Source of the DNA: Alphaproteobacteria bacterium
Lineage (GTDB): Bacteria; Pseudomonadota; Alphaproteobacteria; MPNO01
Reading direction: 5' to 3'
Length of the DNA stretch: 64,000 nt
Assembly (NCBI GenBank): GCA_965202905.1
Contig: OZ241868.1
Location: 2,524,208 to 2,588,207 of the forward strand
The translations under genes and the position numbers were made by a program. Shown piece after piece: positions 1 to 27,210 of this stretch. Numbering within the stretch: the stretch's first letter is position 1; each line of letters starts with the position of its first letter. Below the pieces are notes generated by a model, which did no database searches, had not been told where the DNA came from, and saw only the letters and a program-made list of their open reading frames with translations.

Positions 1-2
1 CG

Positions 3-233
3 ACGACCCTGGGGCGCCGGGACGCCTGCCGTGCGCTGACGACGTTCACCTACCGCCCCCGTTATCGGCGCGGTCTGGGGCAGACGCTGTCGCATTTTCG
101 TATGACGACGGCGCTGGCGAAGCAGACGCCGGTGATCCGGGTGACGCGGCCGTCGGGCCTGTCGCGCATCGAGATGCTGGCGGACCGGATCGAGACGGCG
201 CTGCAAGCGCCGGAGCAGGCGGTGGCGGGCTGA
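3..233 (+). CDS. C-terminal part of an HPr-kinase-like (PadeK/ThcoK-type) lasso-peptide tailoring kinase, 5' truncated by the window edge
   Basis: Manual translation from nt 3: TTLGRRDACRALTTFTYRPRYRRGLGQTLSHFRMTTALAKQTPVIRVTRPSGLSRIEMLADRIETALQAPEQAVAG*. The TYRP..LG....HF.....LA...PV..V.RP pattern resembles the C-terminus of lasso-cluster kinases. It ends 11 nt before the sulfotransferase. The catalytic part lies outside the window. Confidence 0.6.
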   Translation, partial: TTLGRRDACRALTTFTYRPRYRRGLGQTLSHFRMTTALAKQTPVIRVTRPSGLSRIEMLADRIETALQAPEQAVAG

Positions 234-243
234 GGGTCGGGCG

Positions 244-1119
244 GTGTCGATCGTCTGGATCGCGGCCTATCCCAAATCCGGCAGCACGTGGCTGCGGACG
301 ATGTTGACCAACTATCTGCGCCCGGACGACGAGCCGGCTTCGATCAACGACCTGTTGGGCGGCGTGGGCGACAGCAGCCGGGTGATGTTCGACGATATGC
401 TGGGGCCGGTCTCGTCCGACATGACGGAGGACGAGGTGCTGCGCTGTCGCCCGTTGTTCCAGGAGTTGCTGGCCGCGGAGCGTCCCCATCCCACCTTCTA
501 CAAGACGCACGAAGCTTGGCTGCGCGGTCCCGGCGGCGCGCCGGTGTATTCCCGCGCGGCGGCGGCCGGCGCGGTCTATCTGGTGCGCAACCCGCTGGAT
601 GTGGCCGTGTCCTACGCGCACCACCTGAACCAGCCCGTCGATGAGACCATCGGACGGATGGACGATCCCGACAGCTATGAATGGGGCGGCAGGAGCCGGA
701 TCACGCACACCCTGCCGCAGCGCATGCTCACCTGGAGCGGGCAGGTGTCGAGCTGGCTGGACCAGGAAGAGATCCCTCTGCACGTCGTGCGCTACGAGGA
801 CATGCTGGCGGCCACCGTCGACACGCTCGGCGGGATCGTCCGCTTCGCCGGGCTGGATGTCGACGCCGCCCGGCTGGGCCGGGCGGTGGACCACGCGTCG
901 TTCGAGCGGTTGCAGGCGCAGGAGGCGGATTCCGGGTATCGGGAGAAGCCGACGAGCGCGCGGCCCTTCTTCCGCAGCGGGGTTGCGGGCGGCTGGCGCG
1001 AGTCGCTCGGCGAGGATCAGGTGCGGCGTCTGCTGGCTGCGCACGGGTCGGTCATGGAGCGGTTCGACTATCGGCGCGAGGCCGAGTCGTTTCTGTCGAA
1101 CGGCGAGGGCCGCCGATGA
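244..1119 (+). CDS. PAPS-dependent sulfotransferase (Sulfotransfer_1 family)
   Basis: 5'-PSB motif YPKSGSTWLR and 3'-PB motif LVRNPLDVAVSY; VRYEDM and C-terminal FFRSGVAGGW. Its stop overlaps the cyclase start (ATGA). Confidence 0.92.
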   Translation: MSIVWIAAYPKSGSTWLRTMLTNYLRPDDEPASINDLLGGVGDSSRVMFDDMLGPVSSDMTEDEVLRCRPLFQELLAAERPHPTFYKTHEAWLRGPGGAPVYSRAAAAGAVYLVRNPLDVAVSYAHHLNQPVDETIGRMDDPDSYEWGGRSRITHTLPQRMLTWSGQVSSWLDQEEIPLHVVRYEDMLAATVDTLGGIVRFAGLDVDAARLGRAVDHASFERLQAQEADSGYREKPTSARPFFRSGVAGGWRESLGEDQVRRLLAAHGSVMERFDYRREAESFLSNGEGRR

Positions 1120-2909
1120 TCTCGGGCTTTTACGCGCGGCGGGGCGGCGGGGCGGCGGCGGCCTCCCCGGCGGATGCCGGCCAGCTTCGGCCGGACCCGG
1201 CGGTCGGCCTGTCGGGTGCGGAGGGCCTGCGGTCGGAGGACCGTGAGGCCGGGCTGACGGTGGTGGCGGATTGCCGCCTCGACGACCGGGCCGCCCTGGC
1301 GGGCGCGCTCGGCCTGCGCGACGTGGAGTCGCTGTCCGACAGCGCGCTCATCCTGGGGGCGTATGCGCGCTGGGGGCGCGACTGCCCGTCGCATTTGTTC
1401 GGCGACTACGCGTTCGCGGTGTGGGATGCCCGCCGTCGCACCCTGTTTTGCGCCCGTGACCATGTCGGCGCGCGCGCCTTCCACTACGCGCTGACTGCCG
1501 ACCGATTCGTCTTCGGGAGCGCCGTCGGGTCGGTGCTCGCCGCGCCCGGCGTGCCGGACGCGCTGGACGAGGAGGTGGTGGCGGGGCTGCTGTCGCCGAA
1601 GGTCCGGATGCCGGTGGATCGCAGTTGTTTCCGGGCCGTGAAGCGGCTGTCGCCGGGCCATATGCTGGCCGTGGAGCCGGAGTCGTTGCGCATCGAGCGC
1701 TGGTGGCGGCCGGAGGCCGCACCGTCGGTCGCGCCGACCTCGGACGACGACCGTTCGCAGACCTTTCTCGCGCTGTACCGGCAGGCGGTGGGGGACTGCC
1801 TGCGCGGGGCCGAGGCGGGGTCGGTGGGGACGCATTTGAGCGGCGGGCTGGACTCGTCGAGCATCACGGTGCTCGCGGCCGAGGAGTTGCGCCGCCGGGG
1901 GGAGCCGCCGCCGACGGCGTTCGCGTGGCAGCCGGCGCCGCCGTCGGGGACGGCCGGGGAGGATGATGCGAACGCCGACGAGTATCGCCTCGTCGAGGCG
2001 ACGGCGAGCCGGGCGGAGACGCCGTTGGTCTGGTGCGCGCCCACCGGGGCCGATGTGGAGGCGTGGCTGCGCCAGGACGGGGCACGGGAGTGGGGCAGTG
2101 ATACGCTGCTGCACGAGATGTCGGTCCAGCGGGCTGCGGCGGCGCGCGGGGTGCGTCGGATACTCTCGGGCTGGGGTGGCGATGAATGCGCGTCCTACGG
2201 CGGTCGCGGCTATTACCAGGAACTGCTGCTCGGCGGTCGCTTCATCCGGCTGTGGCGGGCGCTTCGCGCGCGCCGGTCTTCTGCGAAGAACGCCCTGTCG
2301 GCGGTCGTTCTGCCCTTGCTGCCGTTCGGGATGGAACTCGCCATCCGTCGCGCTTTGGATTCGGAGCGCACCGCGCCGCCTCCGCAGCGCTCTTTCGCGC
2401 ATCCGGATCTCGCGCGTCGGTTCAAGCTGCGCCCGCCCGACCTCGGGACGAGAGGCGTTCGGCAGAGGCAGTGTAGCCTGATCGGGCTGGGTCATCTGTG
2501 CGAGCGCATGGAAGGTTGGGCGCTGGAGGGGTCGCGTCGCGGCATCGAGTACGGCTACCCGCTATTGGACCGTCGTCTGATGGAGTTCGTCCTGGGGCTG
2601 CCGCCGGAGCAGTTTCATCAGGGGCGCTGGAGCCGCTGGGTGATGCGCCACGCCCTTCGCACGGTGCTGCCGCCGGAGGTGTGCTGGTACACCGACAAGC
2701 GTGATCCGGTGCGTTTCGCGGGTTACCGGGGGAGCGTGATCGAGACGCTGCCGGTGCTCCACCGCGAGTTGGCCGGTCGCGCGGCGGCGCCCTCGCGGGC
2801 GCGCTATGTCGACATGCCGCATTTGCTGACCTGCCTGGAGGATGGCTGGCCGGCCGGGGAACCCTTTGCCCACCGGGCGCTGACGGCGGTGCGGTTTCTC
2901 GACTTCTGA
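1116..2909 (+). CDS. Lasso peptide cyclase (C protein; asparagine synthetase-like)
   Basis: ATG at 1116 overlaps the upstream stop. Motifs GDYAFAVWD, ARDHVGAR, LSGGLDSSSI, SGWGGDE and YPLLDRRLMEF are present. It lacks the catalytic Cys1 of true AsnB (starts MISG). Lasso precursors and a B2 gene lie next to it. Confidence 0.9.
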   Translation: MISGFYARRGGGAAAASPADAGQLRPDPAVGLSGAEGLRSEDREAGLTVVADCRLDDRAALAGALGLRDVESLSDSALILGAYARWGRDCPSHLFGDYAFAVWDARRRTLFCARDHVGARAFHYALTADRFVFGSAVGSVLAAPGVPDALDEEVVAGLLSPKVRMPVDRSCFRAVKRLSPGHMLAVEPESLRIERWWRPEAAPSVAPTSDDDRSQTFLALYRQAVGDCLRGAEAGSVGTHLSGGLDSSSITVLAAEELRRRGEPPPTAFAWQPAPPSGTAGEDDANADEYRLVEATASRAETPLVWCAPTGADVEAWLRQDGAREWGSDTLLHEMSVQRAAAARGVRRILSGWGGDECASYGGRGYYQELLLGGRFIRLWRALRARRSSAKNALSAVVLPLLPFGMELAIRRALDSERTAPPPQRSFAHPDLARRFKLRPPDLGTRGVRQRQCSLIGLGHLCERMEGWALEGSRRGIEYGYPLLDRRLMEFVLGLPPEQFHQGRWSRWVMRHALRTVLPPEVCWYTDKRDPVRFAGYRGSVIETLPVLHRELAGRAAAPSRARYVDMPHLLTCLEDGWPAGEPFAHRALTAVRFLDF

Positions 2910-3069
2910 GGCTTTCCGCCCCTCCACCCCCTCCACCCCTCCATGGGACGTCTGGAATCGAAGTCGTCGGGCGGGCGTTGGGCAGGATGAGACCGTGCGC
3001 CGACCGTGCGCCGGATGCGGATCGTCGAGAAACGAAAGTCGCTTTCGGTCCGGAGCGGCGGACGCTTCG

Positions 3070-3180
3070 CCGCCGCTCCATTCCGGGCCGCCCGGTGTTC
3101 GGGGCGCGGCGCCGCGCCGACGGAAGCAGGCTGCAACGCCACGCCTGACCGGTTGCGGACGGGCGCCGCCCGGTCGGCTG
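3070..3180 (+). pseudogene. Decayed 3' fragment of lasso B2 protease
   Basis: DNA resembles the IPGRLVFGVRRRTDGGGLQYHAW region of the intact B2 gene (about 4235-4345). Confidence 0.7.
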
Positions 3181-3195
3181 TACGGCGAATTCATG

Positions 3196-3224
3196 TTGAC
3201 CGGCAGGCCGCCGGTAAGTACGAT
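3196..3224 (+). promoter_or_regulatory. Sigma70-like promoter upstream of precursor
   Basis: TTGACC-N17-TACGAT about 80 nt upstream of the precursor ATG; the motif recurs before other precursor copies. Confidence 0.65.
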
Positions 3225-3304
3225 CGGCGCGTGTCGAAGGTGGATCGCTCACAGGCGGCCGACGGCGCGACAGCGCCCGACTCTTGAACTCAGGGAGTGA
3301 AAAC

Positions 3305-3477
3305 ATGACCAGCCATCGAAACGCCCTTGTACCCCCCCCCCCCCCCCGCAGGATGAGGCGCGGGAACGCTGGACCCGGCCGATGATCCGCGAACTGGGCC
3401 GCGCCCAGACGACGGAAAGCGGCACTGCCGCTGGTACAGCTGAGAATACCGAATATTTCGACATCGACGCGTCGTAG
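3305..3477 (+). CDS. Lasso precursor A1, core SGTAAGTAENTEYFDIDAS; out of frame at a C16 tract as assembled
   Basis: MTSHRNALV-(C16, 3332-3347)-QDEARERWTRPMIRELGRAQTTE|SGTAAGTAENTEYFDIDAS*. WxxPxI motif, Thr at -2, Ser1, Glu9. In-frame reading needs 3n+2 C. Confidence 0.85.
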
Positions 3478-3571
3478 ACCCGACTCTCGGACATCATGCG
3501 GATCGTCCACAGGCGGCCGACGGCGCGATACGGCGCGACAGAGCCCAACTCTTGAACTCTGGGAGGAGAAC

Positions 3572-3745
3572 ATGACCGACCACCGAAACGCCCTTGTACC
3601 CCCCTCCTCCCCGCAGGATGAGGCGCGGAAACGCTGGACCCGGCCGACGATCTTCGAACTGGGCAACGTCAAGGTGACGGAGGGCGCCACTGCTGCCAGG
3701 GATGTCGAGAGTGGTACTCATTACCCCCTCAGCCAGTCATCGTGA
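3572..3745 (+). CDS. Lasso precursor A2, core GATAARDVESGTHYPLSQSS; intact
   Basis: MTDHRNALVPPSSPQDEARKRWTRPTIFELGNVKVTE|GATAARDVESGTHYPLSQSS*. RBS GGGAGGAG. The C tract is interrupted by T's and stays in frame. Confidence 0.9.
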   Translation: MTDHRNALVPPSSPQDEARKRWTRPTIFELGNVKVTEGATAARDVESGTHYPLSQSS

Positions 3746-3940
3746 CGCACGGCCGCCGCCACTCTGCGGAGAGCGCGGCGCCGGGCTGACGAGGGCATCC
3801 GGGCCGAGGGCGTCGGGGCGCGGCGGCGGCGCCAGGGTTGTGTCGGCATACCGGCCCGGCATACCCGACGAGGCGAAGCCAGTGCGATTGCGGGGAATGC
3901 GTGGTTGCGCGGGGGTGCGGCGCACACGATTGGAGGGTGA

Positions 3941-4399
3941 ATGCGGCGGTTGAGCGCGTTCCTTCGTGCGCCGGCGTCGACCAAGGCGCTGGTCGTGGAG
4001 GCCTTGGTGCTGTTCCTGGCGGCGCGGCTGCTGGTCGCGCATGTGCCCATGCGCCACTGGCGTCGCCGGCTGGAGACCCGTATTCAGGCCGGCGACCCGC
4101 TGCCGGAGGGCGACCCGCGCGGGGACACGGCGCGGCAGGTGGCCCGTGCGGTGCGGGCGGCGGCCCGCAATGCGCCCTTCGCCGCCGTCTGCCTGCCGCA
4201 AGCCATGGCCGCGCAGTGGATGCTTCGCCGCCGCTCCATTCCGGGCCGCCTGGTGTTCGGGGTGCGCCGCCGCACCGACGGAGGCGGGCTGCAATATCAC
4301 GCCTGGCTGATTGTGGACGGGCACTGCCTGGTCGGCGGGGGAGAGATCAAGACCTACGCGCCGCTGCCCCCGATCGACGCGGTCGGAGGCCGCGCTTGA
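3941..4399 (+). CDS. Lasso peptide B2 protein (transglutaminase-like leader peptidase)
   Basis: AVCLPQAMA (catalytic Cys), FGVRR and YHAWL (catalytic His); 152 aa; RBS GGAGG. This is the only intact copy in the window. Confidence 0.92.
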   Translation: MRRLSAFLRAPASTKALVVEALVLFLAARLLVAHVPMRHWRRRLETRIQAGDPLPEGDPRGDTARQVARAVRAAARNAPFAAVCLPQAMAAQWMLRRRSIPGRLVFGVRRRTDGGGLQYHAWLIVDGHCLVGGGEIKTYAPLPPIDAVGGRA

Positions 4400-4517
4400 G
4401 GTCTTGTGCGGTCTGGCTTGCGCGGTCTGGAGTGCCGTGCGAGAGTAGCCGGACTGCGCGATGTGAAGCTGAAGTCGAGACCGAGACCGGAAAGGAGAGT
4501 GGGACAGGAACGACGGC

Positions 4518-4698
4518 GTGAAGAAATCACTCGAGAGCGCCTCCCCCGCGAGGGTATGGCAGCGCGGAGACGACGCGCTGGACCCGGCCGACGATCCGCG
4601 AACCGGGCCGCGTCTGGAGGACGGAAGGCGGCCCCGATCCTTCGGCATCTGAGAACGCTGGTTATTACGACGCCCCGATCTATGACAACAGTAGTTAG
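4518..4698 (+). pseudogene. Lasso precursor A3, core GGPDPSASENAGYYDAPIYDNSS; leader frameshifted or lacking a start
   Basis: RWTRPTIREPGRVWRTE|GGPDPSASENAGYYDAPIYDNSS* has Glu9. The VKK-type leader start (GTG 4518) is in another frame. Confidence 0.75.
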
Positions 4699-4714
4699 GG
4701 GCTCGACGCGACGA

Positions 4715-4955
4715 GTTGGCGTCTGCCTGCCGCAAGCCCCGTCTGCCTGCCGCAAATCAGGGGGGCCGCGCAGTGGATGCTTCCTCGGTCCGGAGACGGG
4801 GCCGCCGCTGCATTCCGGGCCGCGTGGCGTTCGGGGCGCCGCGCGGCGCTGACGGAGGCGGGCTGCAATACCACGCATGGCCGATTGCGGACGGGCGCCG
4901 CCCGGTCGGCGGGGGAGAGATCGAGACCTGCGCGCCGCCGCCCCCCGCCTGACAT
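4715..4955 (+). pseudogene. Decayed B2 3' fragment
   Basis: CLPQA, AAQW and GGGLQYHAWPIADGRRPVGGGEIETCAP remnants in shifting frames. Confidence 0.75.
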
Positions 4956-4970
4956 GGAAACCGGTCGGCC

Positions 4971-5519
4971 TTAAAGGCGGCGCAGAATTCGGGCCAATCG
5001 CGCAAGGGTTCGGAACGCGCCCAGCCATCCCGCACCCGTCGGCCGCGCGCGGCGGACCGCGCCGGGCGCCGGGATCGCCATGCCTTTCCGGGCGGATCGC
5101 CAATCCTTCGGGCGCTGCCATTCACCGGCCCACAACCCCGCTCGTTCGCGCTTCGCCCGGCGTTCGTCGCTGCTGTAGTCCGGGGGGCCATATTCGGCGA
5201 CGGCGAAGCCATTGCGGACAAGCCATTGGCAGGCGTCCTCGCGCTTGCGGCCGTTCGTCAGGATGACGCGGCCGATGGTTCGCCCGTAGCGGTCGGCCCC
5301 TTTCCCGGCGTCTTCGATGTTGATGCGCCATCCCTCACGCTGGCGGCGGCGAAGATACGCGGCGAAGGCTTCCGTTGCAGCTTGCCCGGCGTCGAATTCG
5401 CGGCCCCTTGCGTTGCGCGCCGGCTGGCCGTTTTCGGGCGCATCGATTCCGGCGAGGCGCACCGGGCCGACGCCCGGAATGTCGAGCGTATCGGCGTCTA
5501 TCAAGCGGCCCTGGCTCAC
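4971..5519 (-). CDS. Thermonuclease (SNase-like) family protein
   Basis: DADTL…VRLAGIDAPE…DRYGRTIG…LVRNGFAV…AKRERAGLWAGEWQRPKDWR. Likely start is GTG at 5519. Confidence 0.85.
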   Translation of the reverse strand: MSQGRLIDADTLDIPGVGPVRLAGIDAPENGQPARNARGREFDAGQAATEAFAAYLRRRQREGWRINIEDAGKGADRYGRTIGRVILTNGRKREDACQWLVRNGFAVAEYGPPDYSSDERRAKRERAGLWAGEWQRPKDWRSARKGMAIPAPGAVRRARPTGAGWLGAFRTLARLARILRRL

Positions 5520-5529
5520 AGGGGCGCGC

Positions 5530-5725
5530 CCTGGAGGTACTTCGCGACCGCGTTGCGTTCGGCCTTCGCGCCGGCGGCGTAGTGGGCGACCATGCGGGCC
5601 GTCTTCCACCCGCCGGAAAGCATGGCTTCGGTGGTGGACGCGCCGCGCGCGTTCGGGGCGGTTTTCACGTCGCGCCATTCGAGCGTGGCGGCTTCGGAGC
5701 GTCGGAGCGCGCCTTGTCGTGATCG
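5530..5725 (-). pseudogene. Internally deleted tyrosine recombinase (Cre/XerD-like) remnant
   Basis: GALRRSEAATLEWRDV (box I R..E) is fused directly to GASTTEAMLSGGWKTARMVAHY (box II with catalytic Tyr). Confidence 0.7.
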
Positions 5726-5856
5726 GGCGGGGCGTGATCGGGCGGGGCGTCGAGGCGAGCGAGCGCCCGGCGGCGGGGCGTTCCGCATCGCCGGCGCAAG
5801 CGCTGCGCCCGCCAGCCCGGTCGCCGCTGGCGACGGCGCGGGAACCCGGCTGGGGG

Positions 5857-6129
5857 TCATCGGCTGGTCCCCGTCGGCGCCGTGCGCGCGATCAACGCTT
5901 CGAGCGCCCGCATCGCTTCGGCGTGACGCTGGTCATCGGCGGCGATCCCGGCGGCGATTCCGGCGTCGCGCGCGCTGGCGTTCTGCTGCACCAGCCGCAA
6001 GCCCCAGGCGATCAGGAGGCATTGCGCGATCCCGATGGCGACGCCGCCGACGGTGGCCCATGCGGAGATTTCCCGCCAGCCCAGCGAGGCGGCGTGAAAG
6101 GCCAGCGTGGCGGTTTCGAACCCGGTCAT
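5857..6129 (-). CDS. Small single-TM hypothetical protein, copy 1 (90 aa)
   Basis: MTGFETATLAFHAASLGWREISAWATVGGVAIGIAQCLLIAWGLRLVQQNASARDAG…HAEAMRALEALIARTAPTGTSR; seven paralogous copies in the window. Confidence 0.7.
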   Translation of the reverse strand: MTGFETATLAFHAASLGWREISAWATVGGVAIGIAQCLLIAWGLRLVQQNASARDAGIAAGIAADDQRHAEAMRALEALIARTAPTGTSR

Positions 6130-6195
6130 GGCGGACCTTCTCTGTTCCGATCTGTTCCGATGATGCTCGTTGGCGACGGACGGCGCAATTCGATG

Positions 6196-6224
6196 TTGAC
6201 CGGCGGGCCGCCGGTAAGTACGAT
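6196..6224 (+). promoter_or_regulatory. Sigma70-like precursor promoter
   Basis: TTGACC-N17-TACGAT. Confidence 0.65.
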
Positions 6225-6314
6225 CTGCGTGTGCTGGATGTGGATCGCTCACAGACGGTTGACGGTGCGATACGGCACGACCGAGCCCAACTCTTGATCT
6301 CTGGGAGAGAAGAC

Positions 6315-6489
6315 ATGACCAACCACCGAGACGCCCTTGTACCCCCCCCCCCCCCCCCCGCAGGATGAGGCGCGGACACGTTGGACCCGGCCGATGATCC
6401 GCGAGCTGGGCCGCGTCCAGGTGACGGAAGGCGGCCCCCATTCTGAACTTACTGAGAATGACACATATTTCGACGTCAACGCATCGTGA
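6315..6489 (+). CDS. Lasso precursor A4, core GGPHSELTENDTYFDVNAS; out of frame at a C18 tract
   Basis: MTNHRDALV-(C18, 6342-6359)-QDEARTRWTRPMIRELGRVQVTE|GGPHSELTENDTYFDVNAS*; Glu9. Confidence 0.85.
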
Positions 6490-6759
6490 CGCACGGCCGC
6501 CGTCAGTCTGCGGAGCGCGCGGCGCCGGGCCGGTGACGTGAGCTCCGGAAACGGAGCGTTCGGTCCCCGGGCCGGGCCTGCCTCGCGTTCGCAAGCCGGC
6601 CGCACGGCTTCGTCGACTTGGTCTGGCCCCCTGGTCTGGCCCAAGGCGATGCCGGCCCGGCTCCCGGTCGGCCACGCGATCGACGTTCGCTGCGCTTGAG
6701 AACGTGTCAGCGGACCGTCTTGCCCTCTCGTGGATGAACCGGGGGATGAACCGGGGAGA

Positions 6760-6931
6760 CGGGGCCGCCGCTCCATTTCGGGCCGCTTGGCGTTCGGGGC
6801 GCGGGTGCGGCGACGGTGGGCTGCAATGCCACGCTTGGCCGGTTGCGGACGGGCGCCGCCCGGTCGGCGGGGGAGAGACCGAGACCTGCGCGCCGTTGCC
6901 CCCGCTTGACGCGGCCGGAGATCGCGCATAA
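6760..6931 (+). pseudogene. Decayed B2 3' fragment
   Basis: GGLQCHAWPVADGRRPVGGGETETCAPLPPLDAAGDRA matches the B2 C-terminus. Confidence 0.75.
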
Positions 6932-6998
6932 CATCTTTAGGTCTGGAGTACCGCGCGATAGCAGCGAGACCGGTCGAAGCCAGAAAGGAAACCGAGAC

Positions 6999-7172
6999 AT
7001 GAGCGACGGCGTGAAGAAGACTTTCAAAGATTACCCCCCGCAGGATGAGGCGCCGACGCGCTGGACCCGGCCGATGATCCGCGAACTGAGCCGCGTCCAG
7101 GGGACGGCAAGCGCCCTCGCTAGTGATGTGGTTGAGAATTCCCTATATTACATCCATGCGGACCTGTCATAG
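6999..7172 (+). CDS. Lasso precursor A5, core SALASDVVENSLYYIHADLS; intact
   Basis: MSDGVKKTFKDYPPQDEAPTRWTRPMIRELSRVQGTA|SALASDVVENSLYYIHADLS*; Thr-2, Ser1, Glu9; no long C tract. Confidence 0.9.
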   Translation: MSDGVKKTFKDYPPQDEAPTRWTRPMIRELSRVQGTASALASDVVENSLYYIHADLS

Positions 7173-7174
7173 AG

Positions 7175-7620
7175 CGCGGCGCTGGGCTGACGAAGGCATC
7201 CGGGCCGAGGGCGTCGGGACGCGGCGGCGGTATGCCGGCATACCCGACAAAGCGAATCCGGTGCGGTTGCGGGGATTGCGCGGGCGCGCGGCGCGCGGTT
7301 GATTAGGGCGAATGCGCCGGTCGAGCGCGCTCCCTCGCGCGCCGACATCGACCCCGGCGTCGACCAGGGCGCTGGTCGTGGAGGCCTTGCCGCCGTTCCC
7401 GGTAGCGCGGCTACCGGGCGCGTGCCCATGCGCCGCTGGCGTCGCCGGCTGGAGGTCCGTATTCGCGCCGGCGACCCGCTGCCGGAGGGTGGCCCGCACG
7501 GGCGCGCGGCGCGGCGGCGCGTTGCCGGCGCAAGCGCTGCATCTGCAAGCCCGGTCGCCGCTGGCGACGGCGCAGGTTGGACGGCCCCGACCTCGTCCGG
7601 CGCGGGAACCCGGCTGGCGG
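7175..7620 (+). pseudogene. Decayed copy of the B2 upstream region and 5' half
   Basis: STRALVVEAL…MRRWRRRLEVRIRAGDPLPEG remnants similar to 3780-4200. Confidence 0.7.
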
Positions 7621-7634
7621 TCATCGGCTGGCGG

Positions 7635-7940
7635 TCATCGGTTCGTCCCCGTCGGCGCCGTGCGCGCAATCAACGCTTCGAGCGCCCGCATCGCTTCGGC
7701 GTGGCTGGCGGCGTTCGCCTGCATGGCCTCTGCGTGACGCTGGTCATCGGTGGCGCGTCCGGCGGCGATCCCGGCGTCGCGCGCGCTGGCGTTCTGCTGC
7801 ATCAGCCGCAAGCCCCAGGCGATCAGGAGGCATTGCGCGATCCCGATGGCGACGCCGCCGACGGTGGCCCATGCGGAGATTTCCCGCCAGCCCAGCGAGG
7901 CGGCGTGAAAGGCCAGCGTGGCGGTTTCGAACCCGGTCAT
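7635..7940 (-). CDS. Small single-TM hypothetical protein, copy 2 (101 aa)
   Basis: MTGFETATLAFHAASLGW…DQRHAEAMQANAASHAEAMRALEALIARTAPTGTNR. Confidence 0.7.
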   Translation of the reverse strand: MTGFETATLAFHAASLGWREISAWATVGGVAIGIAQCLLIAWGLRLMQQNASARDAGIAAGRATDDQRHAEAMQANAASHAEAMRALEALIARTAPTGTNR

Positions 7941-8006
7941 GGCGGACCTTCTCTGTTCCGATCTGTTCCGATGATGCTCGTTGGCGACGGACGGCGCAAT
8001 TCGATG

Positions 8007-8035
8007 TTGACCGGCAGGCCGCCGGTAAGTACGAT
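8007..8035 (+). promoter_or_regulatory. Sigma70-like precursor promoter
   Basis: TTGACC-N17-TACGAT. Confidence 0.65.
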
Positions 8036-8125
8036 CTGCGTGTGCTGGATGTGGATCGCTCACAGACGGTTGACGGTGCGATACGGCACGACCGAGCCCA
8101 ACTCTTGATCTCTGGGAGAGAAGAC

Positions 8126-8277
8126 ATGACCAACCACCGAGACGCCCTTGTACCCCCCCCCCCCCCCGCAGGATGAGGCGGACGCGCTGGACCCGACCTG
8201 CGCGAGCTGGGCTGCGTCCAGGTGACGGAAAGCGGCACCCATAATGGCTGAGATGTAACGACAACGACGCATCGTGA
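8126..8277 (+). pseudogene. Lasso precursor A6, degenerate (C15 tract plus several small deletions); core resembles A7
   Basis: MTNHRDALV-(C15)… then GTGACGGAAAGCGGCACCCATAATGG…AACGACAACGACGCATCGTGA, which is the A7 core with deletions. Confidence 0.75.
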
Positions 8278-8539
8278 CGCACGGCCGCCGTCACTCTGCG
8301 GAGAGCGCGGCGCCGGGCCGGTGACGTGAGCTCCGGAAACGGAGCGTTCGGTCTCCGGGCCGGGCCTGCCTCGCGTTCGCAAGCCGGCCGCACGGCTTCG
8401 TCGACTTGGTCTGGCCCCCTGGTCTGGCCCAAGGCGATGCCGGCCCGGCTCCCGGTCGGCCACGCGATCGACGCTCGCTGCGCTTGAGAACGTGTCAGCG
8501 GACCGTCTTGCCCTCTCGTGGATGAACCGGGGGGATGAA

Positions 8540-8719
8540 CCGGGGAGACGGGGCCGCCGCTCCATTTCGGGCCGCTTGGCGTTCGGGCGCGGGTGCGGCG
8601 ACGGTGGGCTGCAATGCCACGCTTGGCCGGTTGCGGACGGGCGCCGCCCGGTCGGCGGGGGAGAGACCGAGACCTGCGCGCCGTTGCCCCCGCTTGACGC
8701 GGCCGGAGATCGCGCATAA
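8540..8719 (+). pseudogene. Decayed B2 3' fragment (duplicate of 6760-6931)
   Basis: Same translated remnant as the ORF-track entries at 6704 and 8492. Confidence 0.75.
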
Positions 8720-8786
8720 CATCTTTAGGTCTGGAGTACCGCGCGATAGCAGCGAGACCGGTCGAAGCCAGAAAGGAAACCGAGAC

Positions 8787-8957
8787 ATGAGCGACGGCGT
8801 GAAGAAGACTTTCAAAGATTACCCCCCGCAGGATGAGGCGCCGACGCGCTGGACCCGACCGACGATTCGCGAGCTGGGCTGCGTCCAGGTGACGGAAAGC
8901 GGCACCCATAATGGTCTTCTTGAGACTGCAACATATAACGACAACGACGCATCGTGA
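8787..8957 (+). CDS. Lasso precursor A7, core SGTHNGLLETATYNDNDAS; intact
   Basis: MSDGVKKTFKDYPPQDEAPTRWTRPTIRELGCVQVTE|SGTHNGLLETATYNDNDAS*; Glu9. Confidence 0.9.
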   Translation: MSDGVKKTFKDYPPQDEAPTRWTRPTIRELGCVQVTESGTHNGLLETATYNDNDAS

Positions 8958-9035
8958 CGCACGGCCGCCGTCACTCTGCGGCGAGGGCGGTTTTCGTGGC
9001 GTCCCGCGCGTCGCTCGATCGACGATAACAGCCAG

Positions 9036-9347
9036 TCACACCCTGTCGTCCCGTTTTCGCGGCCGGATGACGCGCTGGAGAATGGCGCCGAGCGCCGCGC
9101 CGGTGAGGACCGACAGCGCAAGGGCGACCCAGCGCAGACCGGCGGACATCTCGCCGAACGGGACGCCGGTGAGAACGGACAGCGCCACGAACGGCGCCAT
9201 GAAGGCCGTGCCGAGACCGGGCGACGCCTGAAGACCCAGAAACAGCCCGACAAAGGGCGCGAACAGGCCGAAAACGGCCCCCGCGATCAGTCCCGTCCGC
9301 AGGGATCGAAGACCGGTCGGCACGACGAGGCGGCGGGGCCGTTTCAT
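9036..9347 (-). CDS. Small multi-TM hypothetical membrane protein (103 aa), copy 1
   Basis: MKRPRRLVVPTGLRSLRTGLIAGAVFGLFAPFVGLFLG…VALALSVLTGAALGAILQRVIRP; hydrophobic; duplicated at 18434-18745. Confidence 0.65.
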   Translation of the reverse strand: MKRPRRLVVPTGLRSLRTGLIAGAVFGLFAPFVGLFLGLQASPGLGTAFMAPFVALSVLTGVPFGEMSAGLRWVALALSVLTGAALGAILQRVIRPRKRDDRV

Positions 9348-9729
9348 TGGTTTCGCGCCTGCCCTTTCGGTACGCGCCACCCCACACCGTCTTTGCCCGT
9401 GACCCGTTGTTTCTCAACGTCCCTCCAAGGGGGTCCCGATGCGACGACCGGCGAAAGATCTTGCCGACCGATCGCGCATCGCGGCCGTCCTCGACGCCCG
9501 CCTGCATCGTGGCCCGTGGGCGCGCCTTGTCGTGACCGGGCGGGGCGTGATCGGATGTGGCGTGATCGGGCGGGGCGTGATCGGGCGGGGCGTCGAGGCG
9601 AGCGAGCGCCCGGCGGCGGGGCGTTCCGCATCGCCGGCGCAAGCGCTGCATCCGCCAGCCCGGTCGCCGCTGGCGACGGCGCGGGTTGGACGGCCCCGAC
9701 CTCGCCCGGCGCGGGAACCCGGCTGGCGG

Positions 9730-10054
9730 TCATTGGTTCGTCCCCGTCGGCGCCGTGCGCGCGATCAACGCTTCGAGCGCCCGCATCGCTTCGGCGTGGC
9801 TGTCTGCGTGCGCTTGCATGGTTTCGGCGTGCGCCTGCATCGCTTCTGCGTGACGCTGGTCATCGGTGACGCGCCCGGCGGCGATCCCGGCGTCGCGCGC
9901 GCTGGCGTTCTGCTGCATCAGCCGCAAGCCCCAGGCGATCAGGAGGCATTGCGCGATCCCGATGGCGACGCCGCCGACGGTGGCCCATGCGGAGACTTCC
10001 TGCCAGCCCAGCGAGGCGGTGAAAGGCCAGCGTGGCGGTTTCGAACCCGGTCAT
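9730..10054 (-). pseudogene. Small single-TM protein, copy 3, frameshifted
   Basis: A 2-nt deletion near 10017-10020 relative to the other copies; extra HAETMQA heptad. Confidence 0.65.
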
Positions 10055-10330
10055 GGCGGACCCCCTCTGTTCCGATGATGCTCGTTGGCGACGGACGGCG
10101 CAATTCGACATCGACCGACGGCCGCCGGTCAGTACGATCGGCGCGTGTCGAAGGCGGCGGTTGAGGGCGTTCCTTCGCGCGCCGCGGCGTCGACCGAGGC
10201 GCTGGTCGTGGAGGCGCGGTCAGCTATCGCGCGCGCCCATGCGGCGCCGGCTGGAGACCCGTATTCGCGCCGGCGACCCGCGCGGGTTGGACGGCCCCGA
10301 CCTCGCCCGGCGCGGGAACCCGGCTGGCGG

Positions 10331-10636
10331 TCATCGGCTGGTCCCCGTCGGCGCCGTGCGCGCGATCAATGCTTCGAGCGCCCGCATCGCTTCGGCGTGG
10401 TTGGCGGCGTGCGCCTGCATGGCTTCTACATGACGCTGGTCATCGGTGGCGCGCCCGGCGGCGATCCCGGCGTCGCGCGCGCTGGCGTTCTGCTGCATCA
10501 GCCGCAAGCCCCAGGCAATGAGGGCGCATTGCGCGATCCCGATGGCGACGCCGCCGACGGTCGCCCATGCGGAGACTTCCTGCCAGCCCAGCGAGGCGGC
10601 GTGAAAGGCCAGCGTGGCGGTTTCGAACCCGGTCAT
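10331..10636 (-). CDS. Small single-TM hypothetical protein, copy 4
   Basis: MTGFETATLAFHAASLGWQEVSAW…. Confidence 0.7.
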   Translation of the reverse strand: MTGFETATLAFHAASLGWQEVSAWATVGGVAIGIAQCALIAWGLRLMQQNASARDAGIAAGRATDDQRHVEAMQAHAANHAEAMRALEALIARTAPTGTSR

Positions 10637-10682
10637 GGCTCGTTCCGATGATGCTCGTTGGCGACGGACGGCGCAATTCACG

Positions 10683-10711
10683 TTGACCGACGGGCCGCCG
10701 GTAAATACGAT
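10683..10711 (+). promoter_or_regulatory. Sigma70-like precursor promoter
   Basis: TTGACC-N17-TACGAT. Confidence 0.65.
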
Positions 10712-10790
10712 TAGCGCGTGCCGAATGTGGATCGCTCACAGGCGGCCGACGGCATGACAGAACCCAACTCTTGACTCCGGGAGAGACAAC

Positions 10791-10980
10791 ATGCCCAACC
10801 ACCGAGACGCCCTCCGTACCCCCCCCCCCCCAGGATGAGGCGCGGAAACGCTGGACCAGGCCGATCGTCCGCGAATGGGACGGCATGACAGAGACGACGA
10901 GCGATGTCTTCACGTCCAGTAAAGACACTACCGCGGAAGATGAGGGTACATACAGCTATATGAATACCAACGCGTCATGA
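10791..10980 (+). CDS. Lasso precursor A8, core probably SDVFTSSKDTTAEDEGTYSYMNTNAS; +1 frameshift at or near a C13 tract
   Basis: RBS GGGAGAG and ATG at 10791. MPNHRDAL… then QDEARKRWTRPIVREWDGMTETT|SDVFTSSKD…NAS*. Positional alignment gives Ser1/Asp9. Confidence 0.75.
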
Positions 10981-11173
10981 TGTAAGGCGCAATTCGCGAT
11001 CCGCAGGCATGGGGCCAGCCACGGGGGCAGCCACGGCGGCCGGGCAGGTTCCTGGGGGGCGGGCCGCCGGGTTCGATGAGACGGAACCGCCCGAGAGAGC
11101 TCGTCGGGATATGTCGTGGCGCCGCCGCGCCCGCCGGCCGTCCCCCCGCCGGGGCTGTCCCGGCAACGACGCC

Positions 11174-11690
11174 ATGACCTCCGCGCGTTTCGCCGTGGCG
11201 GTTGCGGCCCTTTTTCTGGTCCGCCCGGCGGCGGCCGGGACTCCCTTTTCTGGCCGGCCCGGCGGCGGCCGGGACTGTGGTCGATCTTGAACCCGTGCTC
11301 GTCGTCGACGCCTCACGCAGCATCGACGGCTATATGTACAGCCTGCAAGGCGAGGGTTACGCCCAGGCGCCGACCCGTCCCGAGGCGATCCGCGCGATTG
11401 CTTCGGGCTTGCGGGCTTGGCGCGGCGGGTAGCGGCCGCCTGTGTCGAGCGGTCGGGTCGGGCCGAACAGGCCGACTGGCCATCCTGGTCGACTGAACGG
11501 CGATCGACGGCCCGGCCTCCGCAGCGTCATTCGCCAAAACCCCGCGCCAAAACCCTGATGGGCCTGCCGCGACGCTCTTCCGACGGCGCCGGACCCGGCG
11601 CGGCCATCGACTTCGCCGCCGGGCAGTTCGGCGGCAACGGGTTCGGCGGCGCCCGCCGGGCGATCGACGCCTCCGGCGCCGTCCGCCTCA
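11174..11690 (+). pseudogene. DUF1194 (vWA-like) domain protein, fragmented
   Basis: Signal-like MTSARFAVAVAALFLVRPAAA; VDLEPVLVVDASRSID…LQGEGYAQA; GAAIDFAAGQFGGNGFGGARRAIDASG, spread across frames. Confidence 0.6.
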
Positions 11691-11692
11691 TA

Positions 11693-11821
11693 CCGGTCCT
11701 CCCACCCGGTCCTCCCACCCGGTCCTCCCACCCGGTCCTCCCACCCGGTCCTCCCACCCGGTCCTCCCACCCGGTCCTCCCACCCGGTCCTCCCACCCGG
11801 TCCTCCCACCCGGTCCTCCCA
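11693..11821. repeat. VNTR, 13-bp unit CCGGTCCTCCCAC x about 10
   Basis: Perfect tandem copies read directly from the sequence. Confidence 0.95.
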
Positions 11822-12298
11822 GTGGCGTAACGTGGCGGCGTAACGTGGCGACGGGACGCCCAACGCCTCCGCCGCCTGCTCCTGTATCAACTCCCGGGCC
11901 TGCCGCCTCGAATGAAGCTCCTCGACCTTCATCGCTCGTCGTCCTTGCAAGACCTCTGTTGTGCAAGACCTCCGCCGGCTTCATGGCGCCGCTTCTGCGA
12001 GGCGACGGCGAACCGGACGGATCGCCCGGACGGATCGCATGACGCCGGCGCCGGACATGACGCTCGTCAGCAACTCAGCAACACGGGTTAGCGACGCGCG
12101 CGGCCGCGCGCGTTGACAAGCGCGATCCGCCAACGCATCCTGACCGCAAGGCGACGGCAGGCCTTGGGAGCGGGCCCAATCGATCGCCGGATAACTCGGG
12201 GCAGGATCGCCCGGCGCGGCTGGGCGCGGTGGGGGACAGGAATTGGCGCTGCGCGTTGACGTGGCCGCCCGCGGCGGCGTCCGGACCGCGGCGATGCG

Positions 12299-13354
12299 AT
12301 GAGCGGTATTTCGGAAGGCGCGGTTCGTTGCGCCGTACCGGTGTGCGCCGTACTGGTGTGCGCGGTCCTTGTCGGCGCCGCCTCGCCGGCGATGCCGGCT
12401 TCGGAGACGATCGGTCCGACCAGGGTCTCCGGCGATCCGACCAGGGTCTCCGGGCTGGGCGCCGGTGCGCCCGGATCGGCCCGGGCGGCCGCCGTTTCCT
12501 TCGCGCCCGGGGTCCTGCTGCGCGCCGGGGTCCCGCCGCGCGGCGAAATCCCGGTTCGGGCCCGAACGACCGCGGCGCTGGCCGACGCCTTCGACCGGCA
12601 TGGCTATCGCCTCGACGACGTGCGCCGGTTCGGCGCCGTACCGCGGCTGTTCGTAGCGACCGCGCCGCCGGATCTGTCCGCCGTGGCCCGGGTGGCCGAT
12701 CGCAAGGCGCTGTTCATACGGATCGTTCTGCCGCTGGTGCTCGCGGTCAACGAGACGATCGCCGGAAACCGCGCCCGGATCGAGCGGTTGCGCGCCAGGC
12801 TGGCCGAGCCGCGGCGCCTGACGGTCGAACAGGAGCAATGGCTCGCCGCGATGTTCAGCCGCTACGACGCGCCGATGTTCGACTTCGCCGAGCTGCTGCG
12901 CCGGGTCGACGTCATCGTGCCATCGCTCGCCATCGCCCAGAGCGCGGAGGAAAGCGGCTGGGGCACCTCGCGGTTCGCGCGCAAGGCCAACGCCCTGTTC
13001 GGGCAGCGGATCTTCAAGGGGAGCAACGGGCTCGTCCCGCTCGCGCGGGAGCCCGGCGCGCGCCACCGCGTGCGCGCCTTCGACCATCTGCTGGACAGCG
13101 CGCGGGCCTACGCCGCCAATCTCAACTCGCACCCCGCCTATGCCAGGTTCCGCGCGGTGCGGGCCGGGCTGCGCCGCCGGAACCGCCCGTTCGACGGGCT
13201 GGAACTGGCCAGGACGCTGCGGTTCTATTCCGAACGTCGGGGCGCCTATGTCGCGACCATACGGCGGATCATCCGCATCAATCGGCTGACGGTCTTCGAC
13301 GGCGCCCGTCTGGGCGGGGCGACGCCGGACCTCGCGCACGACTCCGAGGGCTGA
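12299..13354 (+). CDS. Glucosaminidase-domain (Bax-like) protein
   Basis: RKALFIRIVLPLV…SLAIAQSAEESGWGTSRFARKANALFGQR…AYAANLNSHPAYARFR. Confidence 0.85.
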   Translation: MSGISEGAVRCAVPVCAVLVCAVLVGAASPAMPASETIGPTRVSGDPTRVSGLGAGAPGSARAAAVSFAPGVLLRAGVPPRGEIPVRARTTAALADAFDRHGYRLDDVRRFGAVPRLFVATAPPDLSAVARVADRKALFIRIVLPLVLAVNETIAGNRARIERLRARLAEPRRLTVEQEQWLAAMFSRYDAPMFDFAELLRRVDVIVPSLAIAQSAEESGWGTSRFARKANALFGQRIFKGSNGLVPLAREPGARHRVRAFDHLLDSARAYAANLNSHPAYARFRAVRAGLRRRNRPFDGLELARTLRFYSERRGAYVATIRRIIRINRLTVFDGARLGGATPDLAHDSEG

Positions 13355-13365
13355 TCGGATACCGC

Positions 13366-13535
13366 CGGTTCGAACCTTTCGCTTCGAACCGCTGGTTTCG
13401 TGTCGATGGATCGACTCATCGAGACATCGGAATGCGTCATGGTCGCCCGATCGTCATCGGCCAGGGGATTTCAGCCGGGGGATTTCAGCCGGGGGATTTC
13501 AGCCGGGGATTCGAATGTCCCGGTCGATCCGCTAG
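13366..13535 (+). mobile_element. MITE-like intergenic repeat, copy A (with an internal 14-bp triplication)
   Basis: Homologous to 39833-39965 and 59470-59603; ends in CTAG, which is the stop of the convergent gene. Confidence 0.7.
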
Positions 13536-14602
13536 CCGCGCGGCAGGTAGAACTGCATACCGTACCAGCGCCAGCGCCCGTCGCGCGCCGGCATGGTGCA
13601 GTTGATCCGCGCCCGCCCCGGCGACAGCGGCTGGTCCAGCCGCACCTCGATCCGCGCGCCGCCCAGGCGCTCGATGCGCGTCCTGCCCTGGCCCGAGGCG
13701 TAGCACGCCAGGGCGTCGATACGCTCGAGCGCCTTGCCGAACACCGTGAACCCGAAATTCGGCGGATTGGTCCCGGCGTTCAGCAGCGGGTCGAGCGGCG
13801 TGACGTCCGTGACCCGTAGCGGCAGCGCGCCGGCCGCCAGCCGGAACCGGCCGATGTCGCCATGCGCCTCGTTCATCGCGAACCGCGGCAGGAAATGAAA
13901 CCGCGAGCCCCGGTGAAGGACGCCGGAATGCTGGCCGAACGCGGCCGTGAACCCGTGTTCGACGACGATGTCGCGCACCTCCAGCGACATCTCGCCGAAG
14001 GGGTAGGCGAACAGCCTCGGCGTGCGGCCGAGCTCCTCCTCGAAGCGCCGGTTGGACTCGGCGATCTCGCGCGCGTTCTCGCCGCGGCTCGCCAGCGGCA
14101 TGTGGAGGTGCGAGGCGGTCTGGCTGCCGATGGTCACGCCGTCGCCGACGAGGTCGCGGATCTGGTCCCAGCTCATGTAGCCGCGAACCCGGTCGTCTAT
14201 CGGATCGGTGGCGACGAACAGCGTGAACGGCAGCCCCGCCTTGCGCAGCCGCGGCCAGGCCTCGGCGTGGACGGAGAGATAAGCGTCGTCGACGCTGAGA
14301 CCGATCGTGCGGTCCGGCAGCGCGCGGCCGATGCGCAGCGAGGCGAGGATCTCCGGGATCGGCAGCACGTTCAGCCCGCGCTCTTCGATCTCGGCGATAT
14401 GGGCATCGAACTGATCGAGGCGTATATTGGTAGACGGCGTCGCGCCCTCGCCGAAACGGTGATACATCAGAATCACGGCCGAGTCCGCCGCCTCGGCGCC
14501 CGGCGCGCCGGCAAGGCCGATGAGTCCGGTCAAGCCCGCGCCGGCAAGGCCGGCAAGGCCGATGAGTCCGGCTGCCCAGGCCGCGCGCAACGAACGAGTC
14601 AT
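13532..14602 (-). CDS. Polysaccharide deacetylase family protein
   Basis: Signal-like N-terminus; AVILMYHRFGE, LSVDDAYLS, TLFVATD, SQTASHLHM, FAYPFGE. Confidence 0.88.
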   Translation of the reverse strand: MTRSLRAAWAAGLIGLAGLAGAGLTGLIGLAGAPGAEAADSAVILMYHRFGEGATPSTNIRLDQFDAHIAEIEERGLNVLPIPEILASLRIGRALPDRTIGLSVDDAYLSVHAEAWPRLRKAGLPFTLFVATDPIDDRVRGYMSWDQIRDLVGDGVTIGSQTASHLHMPLASRGENAREIAESNRRFEEELGRTPRLFAYPFGEMSLEVRDIVVEHGFTAAFGQHSGVLHRGSRFHFLPRFAMNEAHGDIGRFRLAAGALPLRVTDVTPLDPLLNAGTNPPNFGFTVFGKALERIDALACYASGQGRTRIERLGGARIEVRLDQPLSPGRARINCTMPARDGRWRWYGMQFYLPRG

Positions 14603-14932
14603 GGCAGGGACCTCGATGAGCGGCGTCCCGGCGGCGTCCCGCCGCCGTCCCAGTGACGCCCCGGTGTCCAAAGCCCAGCTGGCGCCGTTTTTAGCGCATG
14701 TCGGAACGGGGCGGCAAGCGGCGACTCGCGCCGTTCGAAGGCCGGAGCGCTCCGCCTTCGGAGCGCCGCCCCGCCGGCCTCGTATGGTCGGTTGGCGCGC
14801 TCATCCGGCGCGGGCCTTTACAGGGCCATTGCAGGGCCTTTACAGGTCCTTTGCAGGGACCGGACCCGCCGCTATGGTTCGGCCGCCCGGGGAAATCGAG
14901 CCTGGGGAAATCGAGCAAGCGGGAGACGGCCG

Positions 14933-15769: not shown

Positions 15770-15773
15770 GCCG

Positions 15774-16556
<783 letters not shown>

Positions 16557-16569
16557 GGCCATCGCCCCC

Positions 16570-18333: not shown

Positions 18334-18349
18334 ACCCGACCCTCAGGCA

Positions 18350-20552: not shown

Positions 20553-20615
20553 GGCGGACCCCCTCGTTCCGATGATGCTCGTTGGCGACAAACGGCGCAA
20601 TTCATGTTGTCCGGC

Positions 20616-27169: not shown

Positions 27170-27210
27170 GTTTTCTCTCCCAGAAGTCAGAAATTAGCTT
27201 CACCCTGTCG

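Follow-up and report, generated by a model that had tools for sequence, protein, structure and literature searches.

We analyzed a 64,000-nt stretch from the genome of an Alphaproteobacteria bacterium (GenBank assembly GCA_965202905.1, contig OZ241868.1, positions 2,524,208 to 2,588,207 of the forward strand), referred to below as the window, which has a G+C content of about 70%. At its start lie enzyme genes that very likely belong to a lasso peptide pathway, and these are followed by eleven precursor cassettes in which a conserved leader is joined to a core that differs widely from copy to copy. In several cassettes, a homopolymer of cytosines (poly-C) within the leader governs whether the start codon and the core share a reading frame. 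Our interpretation, to which we assign a probability of about 0.68, is that a kinase- and sulfotransferase-bearing class II (split-B) lasso pathway feeds a combinatorial, probably phase-variable, precursor library.

Enzyme genes and precursor cassettes

The following genes of the pathway were assigned within positions 1-4399 of the window, together with the fragments of one of them found farther on.

3-233, plus strand: C-terminal 76 aa of an HPr-kinase-like lasso kinase, whose gene runs off the window start
244-1119, plus strand: sulfotransferase of the 3'-phosphoadenosine-5'-phosphosulfate (PAPS) type (PF00685, 2.3e-24)
1116-2909, plus strand: lasso cyclase (C), with Pfam Asn_synthase and GATase_7 and an SGGLDSS PP-loop motif
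3941-4399, plus strand: B2 leader peptidase, the sole intact copy (Transglut_core3, PF13471, 6.2e-24; NF033537, 83.9 bits against a cut-off of 33)
3062-3178, 4803-4946, 6719-6928, 7312-7502, 8576-8716, 20104-20196, and 21638-21739: B2 fragments

The stop codon of the sulfotransferase gene and the start codon of the cyclase gene overlap in an ATGA at 1116-1119. The kinase fragment at 3-233, comprising only the last 76 aa, had no Pfam match of its own; in a tblastn search, window positions 21-203 aligned at 43% identity with residues 238-298, in the C-terminal part of the kinase half, of a kinase-sulfotransferase fusion protein from a related locus (L001), in which Hpr_kinase_C and Sulfotransfer_1 are both present. 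The nearest solved structures to the sulfotransferase were the aryl/phenol enzymes SULT1B1 and SULT1A1, along with the glycopeptide sulfotransferases TEG12, Teg14, and StaL. The top NCBIfam model for the cyclase was the lasso cyclase model NF033535, at 293 bits compared with 145 bits for the AsnB model TIGR01536, a score below the strict NF033535 cut-off of 525. At least eight further B2 pieces occur in the window, all of them fragments. Two 98%-identical paralogues of the cyclase (P0121, P0122) are recorded outside the window, and the genome therefore probably holds three such enzyme sets.

Precursor copies were located by a six-frame search for W[TS]RP and by DNA pattern searches, which gave the following inventory.

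A1, 3196-3477, plus strand: promoter-like site 3196-3224, ATG at 3305, 16-C tract 3332-3347 out of frame, core SGTAAGTAENTEYFDIDAS
A2, 3572-3757, plus strand: in frame, interrupted tract (CCCCCCTCCTCCCC), core GATAARDVESGTHYPLSQSS, 3' box 3738-3757
A3, 4558-4698, plus strand: leader N-terminus diverged and without an in-frame start codon, core GGPDPSASENAGYYDAPIYDNSS, covered by RNA contigs
A4, 6196-6501, plus strand: promoter-like site 6196-6224, ATG at 6315, 18-C tract 6342-6359 out of frame, core GGPHSELTENDTYFDVNAS, 3' box 6482-6501
A5, 6906-7172, plus strand: promoter-like site 6906-6934, another leader start (MSDGVKKTFKDYPP) with only 5 C after TA, in frame, core SALASDVVENSLYYIHADLS
A6, 8007-8289, plus strand: degenerate, with a 15-C tract 8153-8167, a 2-nt leader deletion, and a truncated core
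A7, 8694-8969, plus strand: promoter-like site 8694-8722, in frame, core SGTHNGLLETATYNDNDAS, 3' box 8950-8969
A8, 10683-10980, plus strand: promoter-like site 10683-10711, ATG at 10791, 13-C tract 10819-10831 out of frame, core SDVFTSSKDTTAEDEGTYSYMNTNAS
A9, remnant, 17870-18367, plus strand: promoter-like box and 3' box (18348-18367) present, WTRP leader missing, core-like GTEARAAENADYFDATAS with TTG in place of the stop codon
A10, 21011-21329, plus strand: promoter-like box, ATG at 21120, 16-C tract 21147-21162 out of frame, core GATSPNVKEDNTEYPSSSSS, 3' box 21310-21329
A11, inverted and solo, 26959-27239, minus strand: promoter-like box 27218-27239, GTG start at 27169, 11-C tract 27132-27142 in frame, core GGLDPGAEESSGYYVLGSGLGPFASS
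Trp codons of the leaders: 3370, 3635, 4579, 6382, 7062, 8188, 8850, 10852, and 21185 on the plus strand; 27109 (A11) on the minus strand

The module runs from a promoter-like site through a GGGAGAG Shine-Dalgarno sequence, start codon, leader, and core to a conserved 3' box. The leader DNA pattern matched eight times in the window against 0.00 expected and the promoter-box pattern nine times against 0.01, while an independent promoter scan recovered six sigma70-like promoters (TTGACC-17-TACGAT or TTGACG-17-TAACAT) where 0.6 were expected. Folding of the conserved 3' box was no better than that of shuffled sequences (z = -0.92), and no intrinsic terminators were found downstream of the cassettes. 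Because housekeeping genes at 12-17 kb and 21.7-25 kb separate the cassette groups, the modules are dispersed rather than forming a single array.

In lasso pathways, B1 binds a YxxP-type motif in the leader, B2 needs Thr at position -2, and C closes a ring of 7-9 residues. All nine full-length leader-bearing copies retain WTRPx(I/V), preceded by QDEAxxR, together with Thr at -2, Gly or Ser at 1, and Glu or Asp at 9. Eight of these nine carry a Tyr at core position 13/14, with that of A8 lying at 18/20. The cores are 19-26 aa long and end in Ser throughout the window, as do all full-length cores of the related contig L034 described below. Between copies, pairwise nucleotide identity was 81% for the leader and 55% for the core.

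An earlier note on this DNA, drawn up from its letters alone, had described a closely packed kinase C-terminus, sulfotransferase, and cyclase with the ATGA overlap, and the matches to PF00685 and Asn_synthase/GATase_7, as well as the 43% kinase alignment, bear this out. The single intact B2, the precursors A1-A8 after it, and A9-A11 farther off (18.3, 21.2, and 27.1 kb) were likewise confirmed by Pfam, NCBIfam, and pattern searches, and the residues that the note listed as conserved are kept in 9 of 9 full-length leader-bearing copies. Its assignment to class II lasso logic holds, with C siding with lasso cyclases, B2 past its curated cut-off, and the cores fitting lasso rules; a clustering of the cyclase with true AsnB, which the note had said would overturn its proposal, is not what the bit scores indicate. 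The count of about 11 precursors stands for the cassettes themselves, but only four are in frame (A2, A5, A7, A11), whereas four are shifted by tract length alone (A1, A4, A8, A10) and three are degenerate (A3, A6, A9). The statement that the precursors are hard to see in open reading frame (ORF) calls proved apt: most escape such calls because the poly-C tract sets the frame within the leader, and truncated 31-aa ORFs beginning MIRELGR are on record for the window's own copies (P0166, P0170).

Poly-C tracts and reading frame

In six cassettes, a C homopolymer separates the start codon (MTNHRDALV...) from the QDEA leader; its lengths in the window are 16, 18, 15, 13, 16, and 11 nt. The MTNHRDALV-type start is in frame only when the length n equals 2 mod 3, and among the six tracts only the 11-C copy of A11 has such a length. 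A2 is in frame by virtue of its interrupted tract, and A5 and A7 through the other leader start with only five C. The cores of A1, A4, A8, and A10 are open and retain all key residues, and these four shifted copies are therefore unlikely to be old pseudogenes. Across 31 genes of the window, proline is encoded by CCG in 67% and by CCC in 26% of cases, and other proline runs consist of CCG or CCT, never of CCC; CCC runs of five to seven are thus not predicted by a codon usage that favors CCG. Two of the features by which contingency loci are recognized are present, in that a 5' coding homopolymer of 11-18 C sets the frame of the ATG or GTG relative to QDEAxxRWTRP, and its length is polymorphic among relatives whose flanks are otherwise near-identical.

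A 17-C form, an in-frame length without counterpart in the assembly, was seen at low depth in two DNA runs. A nucleotide scan of metagenome contigs with GCCCTTGTA followed by 11 C returned only 14 chance matches to unrelated sequence. The TTG within CCCTTGTAC, which would be in frame at n = 0 mod 3, was considered as an alternative start and judged unlikely because the Shine-Dalgarno site is about 28 nt away. When A1 (3284-3477) is in its 16-C state, the frame opened by the ATG ends at a stop at 3383-3385, which overlaps as ATGA with an ATG at 3382 that opens MIRELGRAQTTE and the core; termination-reinitiation at this point could give a leader without WTRP.

Strain variation, relatives, and other elements

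Searching with a repeated single-transmembrane (TM) protein of the window retrieved contigs of two other ENA assemblies, L033 with two cassettes and L034 with seven, six of the latter being in frame. The tracts are of 14, 10, and 11 C in L034 and of 15 and 11 C in L033, and three MSDGVKK-type leaders in L034 contain runs of 5, 11, and 14 C, all in frame. The A4 orthologue allowed a direct comparison, with the flanks aligned over promoter, 5' untranslated region, and leader (226 nt).

Window and L034: flanks, 1 of 226 nt different; tract, 18 and 11 C; core, 14 of 57 nt different
Window and L033: flanks, 1 of 226 nt different; tract, 18 and 11 C; core, 4 nt different and 4 nt inserted
L034 and L033: flanks, 0 of 226 nt different; tract, 11 and 11 C; core, 13 nt different and 4 nt inserted

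Core and flank differences between the window and L034 departed strongly from each other (Fisher p = 6e-10). Eight codons of this core were changed, all eight non-synonymously and six of them at two positions when the alignment was read by eye, and codons with synonymous changes only numbered zero. The tract differed by 7 nt, and therefore the difference is no mere homopolymer miscall. Exchange of segments was visible in L034 cassette 2, whose core matches A7 (8850) over its first 14 nt and A4 (6382) over the remaining 43 nt, without mismatch in either part, and whose leader end is of the A5 type. Several further cores behind the same leader were seen at loose ends of DNA and RNA contigs from sponge samples. 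This pattern of core change, as read from the aligned sequences, fits diversifying selection combined with recombination between cassettes. A diversity-generating retroelement was considered and rejected, as the differences hit all four bases and form segment mosaics rather than being confined to adenines; a non-exhaustive scan of ORFs in 1-30 kb revealed no reverse transcriptase.

The stretch is present in runs labelled as sponge metagenomes and as sponge and marine metatranscriptomes from several studies, and its host is probably an uncultured alphaproteobacterial sponge symbiont. In four RNA runs (sponge or marine metatranscriptomes), contig depth was 2-10 over the enzyme genes, 24-112 over the precursor regions, and about 1000-1480 over the shared leader segment, roughly 100-fold that of the enzyme genes, although the values are word depths from the assembler, added up over paralogues and strains; such depths are a poor measure of expression and may include DNA carry-over. 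Contigs in RNA runs carry the A11 core type, and others flank the out-of-frame tracts on both sides. The best named matches of an acyl-CoA dehydrogenase among the housekeeping genes of the window were Defluviicoccus metagenome-assembled genomes (MAGs), at 72-73% identity, which points to an alphaproteobacterial host.

More than 1700 homologues of the cyclase were recovered at E <= 1e-30, and the nearest relatives outside its own cluster of three were 53-54% identical (L030/L031, 53%). The clusters of relatives carry PqqD, C, an ScmC-like kinase that is often fused to Sulfotransfer_1, and a second sulfotransferase, with an Asp/Arg hydroxylase, glycosyl- or nucleotidyl-transferases, B2, and an ABC transporter as further genes; in L003 (Binatia), the genes upstream of the cyclase are unrelated. 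A profile of 17 precursors searched against 1.84 billion representative proteins gave 25 matches, of which 22 were short peptides, three of these being the window's own. The W-x-x-P motif was present in all 22 and a terminal Ser in 21, and many have poly-Pro within the leader. The long proteins P0165 and P0172, each with multiple profile matches, were rejected as family members because they are unrelated repeat proteins. In the DNA, this poly-Pro takes the form of pure C runs, which occupy the same place in precursors whose leaders are only distantly alike, comprising 21 C (out of frame) in L001, 18 C in L002, 16 C in L035, and 19 C in L036.

The L036 precursor (6001-6180) with its 19-C tract stands alone on a 1.1-Mb contig, and no lasso enzyme was found within 6 kb of it; precursors of the family can thus lie far from their enzymes. 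In L032, the PqqD ORF (9154-9675) continues into a precursor-like C-terminus (...PAWATPTVRVMSIKRTKSGPHTNYLPGEQFVYAPPPS), which may represent either a B1-precursor fusion or a merged gene call, and an 11-C run lies at 15200-15210 within the kinase-sulfotransferase fusion gene. In L002, from a Pseudomonadales MAG, an ORF at 9165-9371 (minus strand) directly upstream of the lasso cyclase resembles, by eye, a nitrile-hydratase-type leader peptide (NHLP).

The remaining elements of the window include the repeated TM protein, which is 101-116 aa long and spans 5860-20555 in seven minus-strand copies.

5860-6159, minus strand: TM protein
7638-7970, minus strand: TM protein
9733-10105, minus strand: TM protein, frameshifted
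10334-10681, minus strand: TM protein
19130-19492, minus strand: TM protein
19678-20040, minus strand: TM protein
20250-20555, minus strand: TM protein

These copies are divergent from the precursor promoters and belong to the repeated module. The protein contains H-x-E-A-M-x-A heptads in variable number and has hardly any homologues outside this genome and L033/L034; it could act as a partner in immunity, export, or metal binding. Two 98%-identical copies of a 114-aa membrane-like ORF lie beside cassette 3' boxes, at 9036-9380 (orf9036) and 18437-18778, both on the minus strand. The TM protein and orf9036 matched no Pfam or NCBIfam family, and the precursor matched no NCBIfam family. A staphylococcal-nuclease-like gene (4971-5678, minus strand; PF00565, 1e-11) lies amid the cassette array on the opposite strand, and a fragment of a CoxL/xanthine-dehydrogenase-type large subunit, covering the C-terminal part (26286-26939, minus strand), adjoins A11. 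Perfect 13-nt tandem arrays are found at 11693-11821 (9.9 copies) and 29086-29255 (13.1 copies), the intergenic DNA of the window contains many further 11-16-nt tandem repeats, and a TGAAGC hexamer at 4463 varies by one or two additional units between sequencing runs.

Interpretation and comparison with known systems

In the mechanism that we propose, a single enzyme set consisting of the kinase, sulfotransferase, cyclase C, B2, and a presumed upstream B1 would serve all precursors in trans, with each cassette being transcribed from its own sigma70-like promoter. [quoted passage not shown] The kinase would phosphorylate the C-terminal Ser, the phenol-type sulfotransferase would probably sulfate Tyr13/14, B2 would cleave after position -1, and C would close a 9-residue macrolactam between residue 1 and Glu/Asp9; that the cores become doubly modified, carrying both phosphate and sulfate, is something we only infer. 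Diversity could arise through two devices, namely, non-synonymous core change with segment exchange between cassettes while the flanks remain constant, and hypermutable poly-C tracts that would set the frame and thereby turn cassettes individually on or off, as in contingency loci. We regard the lasso-library part of this interpretation as very likely and the use of the tracts as switches as probable, with a good deal less assurance. An extended form, which we offer tentatively and at rather less than even odds, is that the locus performs programmed variation of a secreted natural product comparable to antigenic variation: poly-C frame switches would let each cell produce its own random selection of lasso peptides, inherited yet reversible, segmental gene conversion involving active, silent, and leaderless (A9) cassettes would keep making new cores between constant flanks, and the device would be shared, probably by horizontal transfer, among symbionts with distant cyclases.

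Several observations weigh against our interpretation. No product of the locus has been detected. No PqqD/B1 was found within the 64 kb by tblastn with the B1 proteins of three relatives or by a hidden Markov model built from those three sequences, and no transporter adjoins the cluster in the window. From the gene arrangement, B1 presumably lies just upstream, because the kinase gene is cut by the window start and B1 comes first in the L001 order (B1, precursor, kinase-sulfotransferase, cyclase). The same L001 locus pairs a kinase-sulfotransferase fusion with a core without Tyr, suggesting that Tyr may not be the sulfation site. Each out-of-frame tract sits 1 nt from an in-frame length, so single long-read miscalls are possible for individual copies, and the Logan contigs that represent the sequencing runs, whether DNA or RNA, are broken at each tract or next to it. 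Moreover, L030, which holds the closest cyclase relative, has two precursors without a C tract, and the poly-C device therefore appears, from the sequences at hand, to be frequent in the family and not universal.

Part of this evidence also bears on whether the library might be real without an evolved switch. The poly-C would then be a slippage-prone poly-Pro spacer whose length reflects mutational noise and, in part, assembly error, and the out-of-frame copies would be recently dead or expressed through slippage of RNA polymerase or the ribosome, so that every copy would yield some product. The poly-Pro common in leaders of the family, the MSDGVKK-type cassettes of L034 that are in frame with 5, 11, and 14 C, the RNA-run contigs on either side of out-of-frame tracts, and the uniform 1-nt offset would all accord with such a spacer. 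We nevertheless consider it unlikely, since a 7-nt tract difference beside flanks that differ at 1 of 226 nt is far above a miscall, the MTNHRDALV type is in frame in 4 of 10 copies, a near-random proportion, and unbroken CCC runs persist in precursors with distantly alike leaders despite the 67% usage of CCG, while one interrupted tract (A2) is locked in frame. Decay offers another account, in which an ordinary lasso cluster sits amid decaying tandem duplicates of B2 and A, with one to four working precursors, the rest pseudogenes, and the library functionless. The B2 fragments among the cassettes, numbering at least eight, the clear degeneration of A3, A6, and A9, and the presence of only four copies in frame would be expected under decay; what makes it quite improbable is that B2 copies have decayed, yet the tract-shifted precursors keep open cores and key residues, and that changed core codons are 8 of 8 non-synonymous against the single flank difference. 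The promoter-like site kept by each cassette, RNA-run contig depth over precursor regions far above that of the enzyme genes, and the related strain's array with six of seven cassettes in frame also argue against decay. That the locus is not a lasso system at all and instead combines a primary-metabolism amidotransferase with chance small ORFs in high-GC repeats seems barely credible. A cyclase score (293 bits) that falls short of the strict cut-off (525) and the failure to find B1 in the window would allow for it, whereas the lasso-cyclase model scored twice as high as AsnB, B2 exceeded its curated cut-off, PqqD, B2, and the kinase occur together in relatives, and the precursor profile retrieved 22 short peptides sharing W-x-x-P, 21 of them ending in Ser.

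The switchable lasso library that we favor would matter in several respects. Lasso peptides are usually described as one cluster leading to one or a few products, whereas here one pathway appears to serve a large, evolving set of cores. The locus is thus a natural test of the substrate tolerance of lasso enzymes, a C-terminal Ser kinase, and a peptide sulfotransferase, and it provides engineers with a scaffold library that already exists. Because gene callers overlook these precursors or cut them short, genome mining under-counts the family. If the tracts are indeed switches, they would place natural-product precursors under stochastic and heritable on/off control, and one could then test directly whether a bacterium living with a host hedges its bets in its chemistry.

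The earlier note saw one enzyme set serving precursors with conserved leaders and hypervariable cores; this picture is upheld, and the population data from L033 and L034 strengthen it. Its view of the system as undescribed stands in part: kinase-type clusters (PMC8498205) and, in passages of PMC9426513, decorated lasso families of sponges are already known, but we did not see the combination of this known RiPP class with a known switching principle described in the texts searched. Our search of open-access full texts returned no paper tying lasso peptides or RiPP precursors to phase variation or homopolymer slippage and none that treats arrays of hypervariable lasso precursors.

The residue that lasso kinases phosphorylate is the Ser at the C-terminus of the linear precursor (PMC8498205). 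Kinase-type lasso clusters include the one for paeninodin (PadeK/ThcoK) and, in proteobacteria, the SyanK clusters (Zhu et al. 2016, reviewed in PMC8498205). The locus described here resembles these in its C and B2, presumably joined by a separate B1 and an HPr-kinase homologue, and in precursors that are alike in little but the C-terminal Ser. Unlike them, it has a putative kinase, only partly inside the window, that adjoins a Sulfotransfer_1 enzyme (the two being fused in relatives), eleven cassettes instead of one or a few, with promoters of their own and leader poly-C, and a sponge-symbiont host. Families of "highly modified lassopeptides" with sulfo-, glycosyl-, and nucleotidyl-transferases are described from sponge microbiomes in passages of Loureiro et al. 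2022 (PMC9426513). These are likewise lasso clusters of uncultured sponge symbionts, and the relatives L030 and L032 have exactly the enzyme mix given in those passages, which, unlike our account, are at cluster level, without precursor arrays, hypervariable cores, or homopolymer tracts.

The prochlorosins, with ProcM and its many ProcA substrates, and the cyanobactin/patellamide cassettes are natural combinatorial RiPP libraries. As in those systems, one enzyme set appears here to act on precursors with conserved leaders or flanks and hypervariable cores, the flanks being near-identical between strains; here, unlike there, the peptides are of the lasso class and are encoded by separate genes with their own promoters, mosaic exchange, and frame-setting homopolymers. 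Contingency loci are known from the poly-G/C tracts of surface genes in Neisseria, Campylobacter, and Helicobacter and from the repeats in the signal-peptide coding region of Neisseria opa. The cassettes share with them a slippage-prone repeat just after the start codon of a multigene family, whose length sets the frame and differs among close relatives. They differ in that switching is here inferred from sequence, the tracts are longer (10-21 nt), and the gated product would be the precursor of a natural product rather than a surface protein.

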